A stretch of 64,000 bases of DNA from assembly GCA_024683775.1 (NCBI GenBank), contig GCA_024683775.1_4106.1; one strand, 5' to 3'. The position numbers and the translations under genes were made by a program. This stretch comes from a phage. Of this stretch, positions 1-64,000 are shown piece after piece (position 1 is the first letter of the stretch; every line of letters starts with the position of its first letter). The notes under the pieces are model-generated. The model made no database searches. It had not been told where the DNA came from and saw only the letters and a program-made list of their open reading frames with translations.

Positions 1-2
1 GG

Positions 3-188
3 ATTTTACATATATTCAAATGGGGTATGGTAGATGGTGATCCAGTACTGGCAATTATCTGTGTAGTGTTTGGTCTACTCGGTGGTGCTGTCCATAATCT
101 GATGGTAATTTGGCAAACCGTACAATATGTATTAGTTCCACATTTTCAGAGAATGCACCAAAGCATCAAATACCGCAAACGAGGATAA
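3..188 (+). CDS. small hydrophobic protein, 5' end possibly outside window (internal ATG at 27 also possible)
   Basis: Open frame from window edge to TAA 186-188; hydrophobic stretch VLAIICVVFGLLGGAV; stop overlaps next start (TAACATG). Confidence 0.35.
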   Translation: MLHIFKWGMVDGDPVLAIICVVFGLLGGAVHNLMVIWQTVQYVLVPHFQRMHQSIKYRKRG

Positions 189-189
189 C

Positions 190-552
190 ATGAATAATAT
201 TGAATTATCTTTTATTGGTCAATTAATGGTAATGGCGTATACATTTATCTTCTCACTGAATGCATTCGTGTGCATTGGGAAATACTTCCATAAGCGACCA
301 TTATCAAATATATATGATGTAATACAAAGGAGATATAGTCCAGCATATACTGTGTTGAGTACAGCATTCAATTTTGGTTTTATTCTAATGCTGGTTGCAT
401 TATTAACATCGAGTTCGAATTTTATAACATTTGGTATTATGGTATGTTCACTAACACTGTGTGTGGTTATTCTCTGTGCATCCGTTGAGTTGCTGGCATG
501 GATGTATAATAAGATTTCCGAAATCCATGAGCGTTTAGGTAAGAGGAACTAA
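190..552 (+). CDS. small integral membrane protein (3-4 predicted TM segments)
   Basis: 120-aa ORF, strongly hydrophobic segments (LMVMAYTFIFSL, FGFILMLVALL, LCVVILCASV); AGGA 8 nt upstream. Confidence 0.6.
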   Translation: MNNIELSFIGQLMVMAYTFIFSLNAFVCIGKYFHKRPLSNIYDVIQRRYSPAYTVLSTAFNFGFILMLVALLTSSSNFITFGIMVCSLTLCVVILCASVELLAWMYNKISEIHERLGKRN

Positions 553-553
553 A

Positions 554-925
554 ATGAGTTATCGTGAAATATTTTCGATCATTACTATTATTGTGTTTAG
601 TTTAGGTTCTTTGATTTGGTTATTGTATTACTTCTGTGTAACCCCAGTATATAATATGCTAAATTCAGTTCGCTCTGATGTTGGTATTGTTTCTTTTATT
701 ATCTTCATGGCATATTATATGCTAAGTATCACAGGTTTGGTTTCGGTTGTTATCTTTGACCTTGGACCGAATCAAGATGGCATGGAGATGTGGGAATTGA
801 TAACGATGTTTGCATGTATGATACCTGCATTTGGTGTATGTGCTGGTGTATTTTATGGGTTGTGTAAAGGTGTGAACTACTTAAAAAATATCCACAATAC
901 TATTCGTAAAAAACGTATGTTATAA
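554..925 (+). CDS. small integral membrane protein (3-4 predicted TM segments)
   Basis: 123-aa ORF 1 nt after previous stop; SD AAGAGGAA; hydrophobic segments IITIIVFSLGSLIWLLYYF, FIIFMAYYMLSITGLVSVVIF. Confidence 0.6.
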   Translation: MSYREIFSIITIIVFSLGSLIWLLYYFCVTPVYNMLNSVRSDVGIVSFIIFMAYYMLSITGLVSVVIFDLGPNQDGMEMWELITMFACMIPAFGVCAGVFYGLCKGVNYLKNIHNTIRKKRML

Positions 926-930
926 TAAAA

Positions 931-957
931 AATCCAGTACTATAATAGTACTGGATT
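931..957. terminator. bidirectional hairpin terminator between (+) membrane-gene set and (-) paralog array
   Basis: 11-bp perfect stem AATCCAGTACT / AGTACTGGATT with 5-nt loop, flanked by A-run upstream and T-rich tract downstream (T-run on both strands). Confidence 0.6.
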
Positions 958-961
958 AATT

Positions 962-61215: not shown

Positions 61216-61791
61216 ATGGAAAATTTTAAAATACCAGATGATTTCAATTCAGTACAAGAGATTGTACACAAGGTTCATTATATTTTTAATGAATTAATTA
61301 TTGCCAATTCATCCGGTATGCAAATTGAGTTAAAGGATATTGATAGAGAAGAAGTTTTTTTGGGTTCCCCAAATTCAATCATTCCTTTTTATGGACAAGA
61401 TCGTTTATGGTTCATGAGAGATACCCCAATTGACAAATACAAAATACAAACAAAATCAGAGTTTTATTCTATTTTTGAATATCTTAATATTACATTACAA
61501 ACACAAGATATAAATGCAATAAGTGCCATGAGTGCTGAGGAATATTTTCAGTACAGTACATTGCATAGTCCAGAAGAAATCTTTGTTGTTATGCTCGTTG
61601 CAAAATTAAGTACAGTTGATTTTGGGACGTACCCAAATAAATCATTCAAGATTATTATTCCTGCATTCGTTGATCTTTATGATTTCATTGTGCACAAGAA
61701 AGAAAGTACAGTGTACGATATGTATCGTTCAAATATCAGTTTATTTGCATCAAGTGCAGTAAATGCAGTGATTACAGGGGAATTAAAATGA
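61216..61791 (+). CDS. EE-FQ family protein (191 aa)
   Basis: Start chosen at ATG 61216 after TTTGACA-N17-TACAAT promoter-like box (61163-61191) and AAGGAG SD; motif AEEYFQYSTLHSPEEIF. Confidence 0.65.
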   Translation: MENFKIPDDFNSVQEIVHKVHYIFNELIIANSSGMQIELKDIDREEVFLGSPNSIIPFYGQDRLWFMRDTPIDKYKIQTKSEFYSIFEYLNITLQTQDINAISAMSAEEYFQYSTLHSPEEIFVVMLVAKLSTVDFGTYPNKSFKIIIPAFVDLYDFIVHKKESTVYDMYRSNISLFASSAVNAVITGELK

Positions 61792-62396
61792 ACATAGACC
61801 AATTAATGAAGTACAGTACAAGTGCAATCACAGTGCTAAGTAAAGCATTAGATTCATTCAATGCTAAGTACCCTGAAGGTTCAGAGTTAAATATTCCTTT
61901 TACCACAGAGGGGATTGTTGATACGTACATTGTAAACATCAGTAGTACAGGTATTGTTTTGAAGCAAAAGTACGGCGAAAGTGAATATTATGGATTGAAG
62001 CTGGATAATATTTCAGGAGAGAAGACACCTTATGAGTTTTGGGTTCCGAATAACATTGAGTCATGGAAAACAAATATTAATAAGAGAGACGAAAGAAATT
62101 TACCTCTTGTACAAAATAATGAAAAAAGAATTGATGTATTTTATTATTACAGTACAGCCCAGTTTCCAGAAGAGATTTATTTAAATTCAGAGGTGCATGA
62201 AGATATTGAATCATTTTTCTTTCAGTTATCATTGGTACAGGATATCATGCCTGTGCAAATGTTCAGGGATGAAATAAATTTAGCGAAAGAGATTTCGGAT
62301 ATGTTACCTGAATTTAGTGTTCTTTATGGTAGTAGAGCTTTACCTGAAAATGTTTACAAAGAATTTATTTCCATTGTTAAAGGGTTGAATATATAA
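61788..62396 (+). CDS. EE-FQ family protein (202 aa)
   Basis: ATGA overlap; motif ESFFFQLSLVQDIMPV. Confidence 0.6.
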   Translation: MNIDQLMKYSTSAITVLSKALDSFNAKYPEGSELNIPFTTEGIVDTYIVNISSTGIVLKQKYGESEYYGLKLDNISGEKTPYEFWVPNNIESWKTNINKRDERNLPLVQNNEKRIDVFYYYSTAQFPEEIYLNSEVHEDIESFFFQLSLVQDIMPVQMFRDEINLAKEISDMLPEFSVLYGSRALPENVYKEFISIVKGLNI

Positions 62397-62397
62397 T

Positions 62398-62592
62398 ATG
62401 ACCGCCTATGATATCAAACAAAGGCATACGAAGTTTGATTTGTTCACATACCAATTCCACAATGATATAGTGAATTTTAACATCAATGCGTCATTGCATC
62501 CTACATCACAAGATGATTTTGACAACAGAGTGCTTAACATCGTGGTGCTTTTGTGTTATAATCATTTCAGTGAATATTTTAACACAAGATAA
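62398..62592 (+). CDS. small hypothetical protein (64 aa)
   Basis: ORF 1 nt after previous stop. Confidence 0.45.
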   Translation: MTAYDIKQRHTKFDLFTYQFHNDIVNFNINASLHPTSQDDFDNRVLNIVVLLCYNHFSEYFNTR

Positions 62593-62605
62593 GGTTGAGG
62601 CACAC

Positions 62606-63124
62606 ATGTATCAGGCCAAGTACAATACATCATATGCATTTGCACACAACATTTTGAAGATCATCAAAGCGTTAGAGGGTGGATTGCTTAGTCATAAGTA
62701 CACCAAAGTAGGTGACAATTGGTTCAGAAATGATGATGAGTTCAGAAGTCATAAGATTGTTTACAGCAATAATTACAGTGCTAATTACCTTCAGGATGTT
62801 GCTATGTGCTTCGAATACGTGTTACAGTTCAGGGGTTCCATCAGTCCTGAGCTAAGAGAACACATGTACATTCGATACCTACCAATGCTTAAGGATGAGA
62901 AAACAATATTCAATTCAGTACACCACAGAGTACGAGAGAGAACATTCAGGGATATTTTAGAAGATGAAGCTGCATATTTCCAGCAATCATTGATTGATGC
63001 TCCTGATGTGTTACAGATGCAGAATTTGTATAATGTATTAGATGCGAACATCGATACGGATATCTTTTTTTCCTTAAGTGATTATGAAACATTTTTGGAA
63101 GATTTAAAGGAAATAGGATTATGA
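62606..63124 (+). CDS. EE-FQ family protein (172 aa)
   Basis: Start chosen at ATG 62606 with SD AAGGTTGAGG; motif EAAYFQQSLIDAPDVL. Confidence 0.6.
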   Translation: MYQAKYNTSYAFAHNILKIIKALEGGLLSHKYTKVGDNWFRNDDEFRSHKIVYSNNYSANYLQDVAMCFEYVLQFRGSISPELREHMYIRYLPMLKDEKTIFNSVHHRVRERTFRDILEDEAAYFQQSLIDAPDVLQMQNLYNVLDANIDTDIFFSLSDYETFLEDLKEIGL

Positions 63125-63465
63125 GTAGATTTTCAGTTTATATAGTAAACGTCAGTAAAGATGGTAGTTTAATTGAATTTGATGTAGTTGATGACAATGA
63201 TAATTCATATGGTATTAAGGTACAGGACAATGATGTACAGTTCAGTACAAGGACAAATTTTGAGAATCCAGTCCAAGTTCCGAATTTCATAGAAGATGAA
63301 GCTGCACGATTCCAATACGAAACGGCCTTTGATAATTTAGCGATGCATATTATTATGCAACAAAGTTTAGTTCAATTGCTTCAGGTATTCAGACAAAATA
63401 TATATGTACATGAAGTGTCGATTAATGGCATTCAAAGTTCCGTTTTGTTCGGTACAAATATGTAA
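63121..63465 (+). CDS. EE-FQ family protein (114 aa)
   Basis: ATGA overlap; motif EAARFQYETAFDNLAM. Confidence 0.55.
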   Translation: MSRFSVYIVNVSKDGSLIEFDVVDDNDNSYGIKVQDNDVQFSTRTNFENPVQVPNFIEDEAARFQYETAFDNLAMHIIMQQSLVQLLQVFRQNIYVHEVSINGIQSSVLFGTNM

Positions 63466-63475
63466 GGAAAGTACA

Positions 63476-64000
63476 ATGAGTTCAATGAGTTTATTAGATA
63501 CATTAGAAAAAGACAGAAGTGCCATTAAGAGATTAAAAAATCTTGTCCAGAGCATTGCGAACAACGCTGAGAAGTTCAGTGACAATCTTAGTATAGGTGA
63601 TATAACCAGTACAGGAATAAAATCCCTGAAGTCAGATTTATTAATTCATAAGGAAGATAAATTATTATTTGTATTGAGTTCAGATTTAATGGTTGCAAGT
63701 AATGGTTTCAATTCGATATCAACACAAGATGGTAGCACAGGATTATATCTATCACAGGGTGTCCAGACGAACGAACAAAAGTGTTTTAGTTCAGGAGTAC
63801 AGAATCCCTTTAAGTTCAGTACAGAACAAGCCACAGAGCTTTTAGAGGCTTCAGAAGAGATGTTATTTCAGTACAAAACGGTTCATACAGATTTTGAATT
63901 ACGATGCATGTACGCTGTTAAGCATTATGTTCAGGAGTTCGAGAATTTAAGTTATCTTTTAGTTCGAACGAATACAAAGAACATTGGTGCATTAGAAGAT
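63476..64000 (+). CDS. EE-FQ family protein, 3' end beyond window
   Basis: ATG 63476 with SD AAGGAAAG; open to window end; motif EEMLFQYKTVHTDFEL. Confidence 0.55.
   Translation, partial: MSSMSLLDTLEKDRSAIKRLKNLVQSIANNAEKFSDNLSIGDITSTGIKSLKSDLLIHKEDKLLFVLSSDLMVASNGFNSISTQDGSTGLYLSQGVQTNEQKCFSSGVQNPFKFSTEQATELLEASEEMLFQYKTVHTDFELRCMYAVKHYVQEFENLSYLLVRTNTKNIGALED

Follow-up and report, generated by a model that had tools for sequence, protein, structure and literature searches.

The window analysed here is a 64,000-nucleotide stretch of phage DNA (NCBI GenBank assembly GCA_024683775.1, contig GCA_024683775.1_4106.1), and the element under study is the palindromic hexamer AGTACT, which is present in large excess. 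BLAST identifies the window as DNA of an Asteriusvirus jumbo coliphage (121Q/PBECO4 group), its closest matches being Turkey3, BF17, vB_Ec-M-J and Ecwhy_1 (95-98% identity). The limits of the terminal repeat were inferred by aligning the window to vB_Ec-M-J, in which positions 1-21525 are annotated as a direct terminal repeat. The window has the right end of the genome joined to the left end with one collapsed copy of the terminal repeat, as in a circularly permuted assembly. The main features are as follows.

1-23.5 kb: right-end unique region, with about 20 RCC1-repeat genes on the minus strand
23534..28372, plus strand: array of about 20 small open reading frames (ORFs; 59-77 amino acids), just upstream of the right terminal-repeat copy
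28373..30407, no strand: gene-poor region of about 2 kb that spans the physical left genome end (~28675) and holds 21 AGTACT sites
28675..49545, plus strand: direct terminal repeat (DTR), inferred from the vB_Ec-M-J DTR, with early host-takeover genes, each with its own sigma-70-like promoter
30201..30350, plus strand: 53-bp tandem repeat, 2.8 copies
49.5-64 kb: first unique genes
49425..54929, plus strand: AGTACT-free block 1, packed small ORFs with a G+C fraction of ~0.31-0.35, just after the terminal repeat
54930..56997, plus strand: 13-site island between the two voids
56998..64000, plus strand: AGTACT-free block 2, G+C fraction ~0.31

Excess of AGTACT in the window

AGTACT occurs 254 times in the window, compared with 20.5 ± 4.6 in dinucleotide-preserving shuffles (maximum 32), and its preferred form CAGTACTG occurs 56 times where 0.68 are expected. 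It is the most frequent hexamer of the whole window and the sole palindromic hexamer with a large excess (observed-to-expected ratio (O/E) 12); the runner-up has an O/E of 2.2 and many others are at or near zero. A preliminary description of the window, made by eye, had put about 20 copies in the non-coding DNA at 28.4-30.4 kb, where 21 were counted, and hundreds across the window. The excess that it reported is thus confirmed and had been understated.

The sites are unevenly distributed, being dense at 22-50 kb, moderate at 1-22 kb and absent at 49.4-54.9 kb and 57-64 kb. The terminal repeat (~21 kb) has 143 sites (~6.8 per kb), the last of them at 49419, and density falls to zero directly past the repeat boundary. 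Intragenic AGTACT is dense, in all three frames, in the small-ORF array; the corresponding stretch of vB_Ec-M-J, at 351.8-356.8 kb, has a density of 29-37 sites per 5 kb. In the gene-poor region, which has no or few annotated genes in relatives and is 88-98% conserved across Asteriusvirus, many sites lie within an extended palindrome, TTCAGTACTGAA or TCAGTACTGA. The former is the longest recurrent form of the motif, with 11 copies in the window, almost none of which lie outside the terminal repeat and the gene-poor DNA at the genome end. Copies 1 and 2 of the 53-bp repeat each contain TTCAGTACTGAATAATAGTACT, with two sites 13 bp apart; partial copy 3 keeps the first site (30318), and its second has degenerated to AGTTCC.

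Inside ORFs there are 152 sites (2.9 per kb) and outside them 100 (9.1 per kb). The commonest reading frame is AGT-ACT (72 sites), followed by xxA-GTA-CTx (46) and xAG-TAC-Txx (34). The preliminary description had associated the intragenic copies with Ser-Thr and Gln-Tyr codon pairs; the Ser-Thr frame is indeed the leading one, but the Val-Leu frame, which had been overlooked, is commoner than Gln-Tyr. Shuffling of synonymous codons, with proteins and codon usage kept, left 37.7 ± 5.8 sites in the window genes and shuffling of codon order left 24.5, ruling out an artefact of codon usage or dipeptides. When duplicated promoter and terminator cassettes were collapsed, by merging sites with 70% or more identity over the 30 bases that flank them, 198 independent contexts remained, so that inflation by such cassettes or by paralogous genes is also ruled out. 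Since O/E stays far from 1 after the codon and cassette controls, the excess is real.

The bases flanking the sites in the window are mirror-symmetric: the base at -1 is C in 45% of sites and the base at +1 is G in 44%. The opposite choices, G at -1 and C at +1, are disfavoured and each fall to 8%. This holds for coding and non-coding DNA alike. Among the 819 coding sites of vB_Ec-M-J, oriented by gene, C is found at -1 in 43% and the complement of +1 gives 48%. Such symmetry is what would be expected of a site read on double-stranded DNA. The asymmetry or strand bias of a polar motif of the Chi or KOPS type was not found, the motif being its own reverse complement and its flanks symmetric.

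The gene-poor DNA at the genome end also contains three tandem arrays, at 28496-28551 (22 bp x 2.7), 29482-29553 (24 bp x 3) and 30201-30350 (53 bp x 2.8), which may be packaging, replication or end-recognition elements. CCCTGG is over-represented in the window as well (25 vs 4.6 expected), partly via a repeated unit that includes GTTCCCCTGGATTGATTCAGTACTG (for example, at 30190-30350).

Extent in jumbo phages and selection on the sites

The excess is genome-wide and clade-wide, a point absent from the preliminary description. The 357-kb unique sequence of vB_Ec-M-J has 983 copies of AGTACT (111 expected) and 220 of CAGTACTG (5.4 expected), and AGTACT has the highest O/E among all its hexamers. 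Density is 2-3 per kb throughout, structural and replication genes included, and reaches ~7 per kb within the terminal repeats and over the 5 kb that precede the right one. The core genes (226 kb) contain 518 sites, compared with 128 ± 10 after a synonymous shuffle or 99 ± 11 after a codon-order shuffle. This whole-genome map rules out a feature confined to the early region. As the excess is both genome-wide and common to a clade of jumbo phages, it is not merely a property of early genes.

AGTACT is similarly over-represented in RaK2 (Klebsiella; 125 vs 11 expected), GAP32 (Cronobacter; 75 vs 10), CBB (Pectobacterium; 83 vs 11), Munch (Salmonella; 52 vs 9) and Serratia phage BF (74 vs 8), and these five share its flank bias. 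In CBB, the terminal repeat has 6.4 sites per kb and structural DNA 2.4 per kb. The first 40 kb of CBB contain 20 copies of AAAGTACTTG, in which AGTAC is fused to a -35 hexamer, and the arrangement AGTAC/TTGACA recurs. No excess was seen in the more distant jumbo phages PA5oct (1 vs 10) and XacN1 (0 vs 6) or in the Vequintavirinae coliphage A5-4 (7 vs 6). Counts in A5-4 are normal despite two copies of the same promoter cassette, ruling out a general property of coliphages or of host promoters. A single 50-kb sample of E. coli K-12 has three AGTACT (0.06 per kb), and phage density is ~45-fold that of E. coli genome-wide and > 100-fold in the terminal repeat.

The enriched phages all infect Enterobacterales (Escherichia, Salmonella, Klebsiella, Cronobacter, Pectobacterium and Serratia) and their jumbo relatives on Pseudomonas and Xanthomonas lack the excess. 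This would suit a site read by a host protein, such as SlmA, another TetR-like regulator or a nucleoid protein, which the phage exploits, for example by blocking cell division or recruiting host machinery. A host reader would also suit early promoters, which must act before any phage protein exists. The nucleoid-occlusion factor SlmA recognizes the 12-bp site GTGAGTACTCAC, with AGTACT as its core, and its binding needs G1, T2, A4, G5 and a purine at position 3 (PMC3020112). However, the phage motif prefers C where SlmA needs the purine (C at -1 in 45%, G in 8%), GT[GA]AGTACT is found at only 13 of the 983 sites, and the full site GTRAGYRCTYAC occurs 0 times in the window and in the 357 kb. As only an estimated ~0.8 full sites would be expected by chance in view of the flanks, their absence alone is weak evidence. 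With a matching core, required flanks that do not match and no full sites, direct binding of SlmA is unlikely. The lack of enrichment in an unrelated coliphage on the same host, and the few AGTACT in E. coli itself, count against host readers of any kind, which are considered distinctly unlikely.

The two voids recur in vB_Ec-M-J, which has zero-site blocks matching 49.4-54.9 and 57-64 kb of the window; block 1 is found only in Asteriusvirus (80-97% identity). Both blocks consist of tightly overlapping small ORFs (~70 amino acids) that are more divergent among Asteriusvirus members (80-88% identity) than the remaining genome. They match only Asteriusvirus (80-98% identity), and an origin as recent foreign DNA is not supported. 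As a base-composition estimate gives only ~4 sites expected by chance in the voids, these represent a lack of enrichment and, at most, mild avoidance.

Sites are conserved beyond their surroundings. Between the window and vB_Ec-M-J (4% divergence), 92.2% of 231 aligned sites are intact, compared with 83.4 ± 2.2% of control hexamers taken within 100 bp of sites (0 of 1000 resamples reached 92.2%). In orthologous structural genes of vB_Ec-M-J and GAP32, which are 64% identical in nucleotides overall and 49% identical at third positions, 15 of 46 sites (32.6%) are at the same codon-alignment position, against a background of 11.7% for any 6-nt window (p = 1.6e-4). The sites are therefore two to three times better conserved than neighbouring DNA. 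Since positions are partly shared and each genome keeps 46-48 sites in these genes, the remaining sites turn over at a maintained density.

Protein sequence is affected too. In the core genes there are 516 Ser-Thr dipeptides (361 expected) vs 346 Thr-Ser, and AGT-ACT encodes 283 of these 516, where ~82 would be expected; dipeptides of Gln-Tyr and Val-Leu are likewise raised. Spacing of sites in the core genome is more even than random (coefficient of variation 0.878 vs 0.996 ± 0.039; 0 of 2000 random-placement simulations were as low), with fewer very short and very long gaps. Having passed the codon and duplication controls, and being conserved above background, symmetrically flanked and built into promoters and terminators, the motif is no artefact of composition and is most probably functional, as the preliminary description had suggested.

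No tRNAs were found in the window. Clusters in vB_Ec-M-J (segment L006, 41423-44842) and RaK2 (segment L009, 28303-32118) include Ser(GCU), Ser(UGA), Thr(UGU), Asn and Met tRNAs. AGT, which is the most used Ser codon and makes up the first three bases of the motif when in frame, is read by the Ser(GCU) tRNA, and phage tRNAs may compensate for motif-driven codon demand.

Alternatively, the excess could be a by-product with no dedicated reader, due to a mutation or repair bias specific to the lineage (very-short-patch-like conversion towards AGTACT), codon-pair preference or the spread of cassettes. In favour of this, there is a C5 methylase, the cassettes have plainly been duplicated and are even common to a Vequintavirinae phage, and Ser and Thr are most often encoded by AGT and ACT. 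A very-short-patch-like repair drive is not supported, as one-mismatch neighbours of the motif are not depleted (O/E 1.1-2.4; AGTATT/AATACT 1.33; only AGGACT is low, at 0.52) and no Vsr domain was found in the ORF that follows the C5 methylase. Codon-preserving shuffles fall ~4-fold short of the observed count, the dipeptides themselves are skewed, and the 198 independent contexts survive the collapse of cassettes. Even spacing and symmetric flanks are not expected from drift, and two long-resident blocks of the same genome gained no sites. It is very unlikely that the excess arose in this passive way.

Early promoters, terminators and a putative reader

A sigma-70-like pattern (-35-like and -10-like hexamers 16-18 bp apart) has 103 matches in the window, compared with 67 ± 8 in shuffles. 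On the coding strand of the terminal repeat, 42 strong sigma-70-like promoters were predicted from sequence, and 30 of these have AGTACT at fixed offsets. The site is at -39 in 13 promoters (AGTAC/TTGCAA, sharing one base with the -35 hexamer) and at -19/-20 in 17 (AGTAC/TG-TATAAT, where the motif gives the TG of the extended -10). It is at -41 to -43 in four and at -29/-30 in four (TTGAC/AGTACT), and an extra site is found at -62/-63 in four. Spacing between offsets is ~20-24 bp, or two helical turns. The promoter classes and their copies are as follows.

33521..33553, plus strand: early promoter with two phased sites (AGTAC/TTGCAA at -39 and AGTAC/TG-TATAAT at -19); copies of this architecture at 34306-34338, 37917-37949 and 41318-41350
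36411..36446, plus strand: second-class early promoter, AGTACT-A-TTGACA (site at -42) and AGTACTGGCATAAT (site at -20); copies at 39254-39289, 39516-39550 and 47445-47480
42623..42650, plus strand: consensus promoter TTGACA-16-TATAAT, with AGTACT abutting the extended -10; copies at 38950, 42894, 45752, 46246 and 29040
32052..32107, plus strand: cassette with an upstream site, TTCAGTACTGAA at -63, an A/T-rich UP-like tract and AGTAC/TTGTAA at -39; copies at 38486-38542, 42138-42194 and 45414-45470

A 28-nt hairpin, AAAGGGATTGACTCCGGTCAGTCCCTTT, is found four times directly before GCTATTAT (38385-38420, 42030-42065, 45313-45348 and 48073-48108). Its stem includes TTGACT, which resembles a -35 element, and a -10-like TATTAT comes after the hairpin, so that a promoter is embedded in the stem-loop; this is reminiscent of the promoter-early stem-loop (PeSL) cassettes of T4-type phages. 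Two cassettes nearly identical to the early promoters of the window are present in A5-4 (segment positions 14975-15030 and 16119-16175), with the sequences AGTACTTGCAATTAGTTTT.AGTACTGTATAAT and CACAGTACTATTGACA..GATAGTACTGACATAAT. Their likeness suggests that promoter cassettes move between co-infecting phages, and such common cassettes account for the many short BLAST matches of the window to other phage genera.

Intrinsic terminators (a GC-containing hairpin followed by a T-run) are also in excess, with 26 matches compared with 8 ± 3 in shuffles. About 10 of those predicted between the minus-strand RCC1-repeat genes have stems of CCAGTACT/AGTACTGG. The promoter and terminator scans thus bear out the earlier observation that the motif is embedded in both kinds of element. 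The terminators are as follows.

2819..2844, minus strand: intrinsic terminator between RCC1-repeat genes, stem AATGCCAGTACT / AGTACTGGCATT and then a T-run; same design at 5158-5176, 7767-7789, 9007-9029, 12663-12688, 13917-13935, 17447-17474, 18695-18718 and 19892-19910
~11429, 21098 and 22311-22324: terminator-like sequence
931..957, no strand: bidirectional hairpin terminator AATCCAGTACTATAATAGTACTGGATT, with two sites

The genes that these terminators separate are about 20 tandem RCC1-like beta-propeller paralogues (~375-450 amino acids; 962-23470, minus strand), labelled 'regulator of chromosome condensation' in relatives. An AGTACT-stem terminator follows most of them.

Since many terminators have stems formed by the motif, and copies that lie close together can pair, it might act at the RNA level, with AGUACU as a processing or binding site in transcripts, or with the palindrome serving mainly to build hairpins. 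Most sites, however, are single copies inside genes with no partner nearby, and sites are found equally in promoters, upstream of transcription starts. The mirror-symmetric flanks (43% and 48%) fit a reader of duplex rather than of single strands, and Rfam has no matches in the window. A signal in RNA is considered highly improbable.

The enrichment, selection, symmetry, spacing, promoter phasing and clade distribution computed here point, tentatively, to AGTACT being a positively selected site for a symmetric, probably dimeric, sequence-specific double-stranded DNA-binding protein, which is probably phage-encoded and would modulate early promoters (probability roughly 0.42). That the reader is a protein, that the phage encodes it and what its binding would do are inferred from these features. 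The sites are symmetric, evenly spread, helically phased at promoters and under purifying selection, and they occur in every frame as well as outside genes; together this argues for a dimeric reader of duplex DNA that acts on the whole chromosome. A phage-encoded protein is favoured because the excess tracks the phage clade and an unrelated coliphage lacks it.

The putative reader would be conserved in the enterobacterial RaK2-like jumbo phages, with CAGTACTG as its preferred site and TTCAGTACTGAA as the strongest form. With ~1,000 sites per genome, or about one per 360-420 bp, it could coat or organize phage DNA, and since site density is ~45-fold that of E. coli, the site would mark DNA as the phage's own. 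Sites are densest at the genome ends, where the terminal repeat and early genes lie and where helically phased sites stand at -63, -39 and -19 of the sigma-70 early promoters. Because sites overlap the -35 and the extended -10, their occupancy should modulate early transcription, most simply by shut-off. The palindrome would also have been recruited as a stem block for terminators.

Several observations weigh against such a protein. The search for a DNA-binding protein of matching specificity, proposed with the preliminary description, yielded no candidate from Pfam scans. Among the matches listed for 65 terminal-repeat and early ORFs and 368 vB_Ec-M-J ORFs there is no classical helix-turn-helix (HTH), TetR or ribbon-helix-helix domain, most of the ORFs scanned match nothing, and the ORFs annotated as 'transcriptional regulator' and 'DNA binding protein' have no Pfam match. 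Two blocks of ~5 and ~7 kb do without any AGTACT, and positional conservation is only two to three times background, so that many individual sites must be replaceable. Because the enriched phages are all on Enterobacterales and those without enrichment are on other hosts or of other lineages, a phage reader and a host reader are inseparable by distribution. Finally, a modifying or nicking enzyme would give the same signals of symmetry and selection.

The listed Pfam matches of the 65 early ORFs (40370-40627 and 40691-41047 are given as examples from the terminal repeat) are a DksA/TraR-type zinc finger, a GNAT acetyltransferase, a ParE-like toxin domain, two DUF7249 and RCC1 repeats.

AGTACT could instead be the target of such a phage enzyme (a methylase, another modifying enzyme or a nickase), giving an epigenetic or structural self-mark; nicks might serve as entry points for recombination-dependent replication or clamp loading. 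Palindromic symmetry, genome-wide spread, even spacing and selection fit a Type-II-like enzyme equally well, and the clade encodes two DNA methylases, several HNH and PD-(D/E)XK-type nucleases and a TnsA-like restriction-fold domain. RaK2 DNA is reported to withstand many restriction enzymes, being cut only by those that tolerate Dam, Dcm, CpG and EcoKI methylation, and to show CpG methylation on bisulfite treatment (PMC3622015). However, the only DNA methylases found in the clade are one Dam-family and one C5 enzyme, and these, with the RaK2 methylation data, point to targets other than AGTACT. Moreover, a modification site need not be enriched or promoter-phased, a palindromic nick site would be cut on both strands, and C-to-T accounts for 7 of the 25 changes at lost sites, which in so small a sample is no striking excess. 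Modification, or the absence of a cognate restriction enzyme in the host, had been proposed with the preliminary description; it could explain tolerance of the site but not a 9- to 12-fold enrichment with purifying selection. An enzyme target is considered unlikely, though it suits the symmetry and selection as well as the binding protein favoured here does.

Absent palindromes and comparison with known systems

The same DNA is purged of other palindromes. CTGCAG, CAGCTG, CGTACG, GGTACC, GAGCTC, CTCGAG, AGGCCT, AGCGCT and CGATCG have zero counts in the window and in vB_Ec-M-J. CCATGG and CACGTG are near zero, and GATC, GGCC and CCGG have an O/E of ~0.45-0.55. It is against this strong avoidance of restriction sites that the excess of AGTACT stands out; AGTACT itself is not avoided (O/E 12). 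E. coli Chi, GCTGGTGG, is ~10-fold over-represented in vB_Ec-M-J (23 and 11 copies per strand vs 1.7 expected on each).

GCGC is absent from the window (49 expected) and from the 357-kb unique genome of vB_Ec-M-J (216 expected). It is also absent from RaK2, GAP32, CBB, Munch and Serratia phage BF, normal in PA5oct and A5-4 and mildly depleted in XacN1 (49 vs 107). In the E. coli sample, GCGC occurs 342 times per 50 kb (~7 per kb). So complete an exclusion from the enriched phages suggests that some activity specific to GCGC is lethal; it might be a phage nuclease directed against the DNA of the host. A search for a GCGC-specific nuclease among the annotated endonucleases found nothing specific. 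One vB_Ec-M-J ORF matches a TnsA-like endonuclease N-terminal domain, which has a restriction-enzyme fold (E = 8.6e-17), and is a candidate sequence-specific nuclease.

RaK2-like jumbo phages might therefore tell their own DNA from that of the host by two sequence words, GCGC being excluded and AGTACT saturated. A phage nuclease would destroy or silence GCGC-bearing host DNA, and an AGTACT-reading factor would mark, protect or organize phage DNA and time early transcription. T4 marks its own DNA by modified bases, whereas this code would use sequence alone. The idea is speculative and rather unlikely to be right as it stands.

No description of the excess of AGTACT or CAGTACTG was found in the searchable literature on phages, that on over-represented palindromes in their genomes included, and the genome papers of RaK2 and CBB do not mention an AGTACT excess. 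Phages are expected to lose short palindromes; these phages do, yet one palindrome is the commonest hexamer of their 350-kb genomes. The excess spans at least five genera plus a Salmonella phage that is unclassified. It has come at a cost that can be measured in protein sequence, and it implies an unrecognized sequence-specific system that acts on the whole phage chromosome through ~1,000 sites. The group comprises therapeutic-candidate jumbo phages in which > 80% of genes are without known function, and the motif gives a definite starting point in the search for a protein, new to science, that binds or modifies DNA. It also bears on the control of early transcription in terminal repeats and, with the absence of GCGC, may explain how a phage with unmodified DNA tells its own DNA from that of its host.

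Among known systems, the architectural proteins of SPO1 and phi29 resemble the reader proposed here. SPO1 has a host-takeover module in its terminal redundancy together with the protein TF1, and TF1 and protein p6 of phi29 bind preferred sites genome-wide. The window likewise has early takeover genes with strong host-type promoters in a terminal repeat, its sites favour the ends and early promoters, and the proposed reader would turn down early transcription as TF1 or p6 does. TF1, however, recognizes hydroxymethyluracil DNA and p6 bendability, neither of which is a defined hexamer, and no homologue of TF1 or p6 is among the Pfam matches listed.

Likeness to the SlmA system extends to an identical central hexamer, a palindromic site, a dimeric HTH reader and scattered sites with one chromosome region free of them. 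The two differ in the flanks, SlmA sites having G1, T2 and a purine at position 3 and phage sites having C at -1, often with TT before it.

PeSL cassettes of T4-type phages are mobile and combine a strong early sigma-70 promoter with a hairpin between small early genes. The early promoters of the window are similarly repeated intergenic cassettes that are common to unrelated coliphages, but a PeSL-like origin does not explain the ~800 sites inside genes or an excess that extends over whole genomes and the whole clade.

Chi, DNA uptake sequences and KOPS are over-represented functional oligomers that mark 'self' DNA, each read by a dedicated protein. AGTACT is like them in its hundreds to thousands of copies, its density far above that of foreign DNA and selection on number over position. 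They are asymmetric and strand-polar, whereas AGTACT is palindromic and therefore cannot encode direction.

HIP1, the highly iterated cyanobacterial palindrome GCGATCGC, is an octamer of cellular genomes associated with cognate methylases. Like AGTACT, it is a short palindrome and the top over-represented word, occurs in coding and non-coding DNA and in all frames, and is clade-wide and maintained by selection. AGTACT differs in being a hexamer or octamer of virulent phages that otherwise purge palindromes, in having no evident cognate methylase and in being promoter-phased.

AGTACT has the marks of a functional word, namely a count above composition and codon expectation, sharing by a clade, and selection. 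The closest kind of system is the functional word exemplified by HIP1, Chi and uptake sequences; what is new in AGTACT is that it is palindromic, found in palindrome-purging virulent phages and coupled to promoter architecture.

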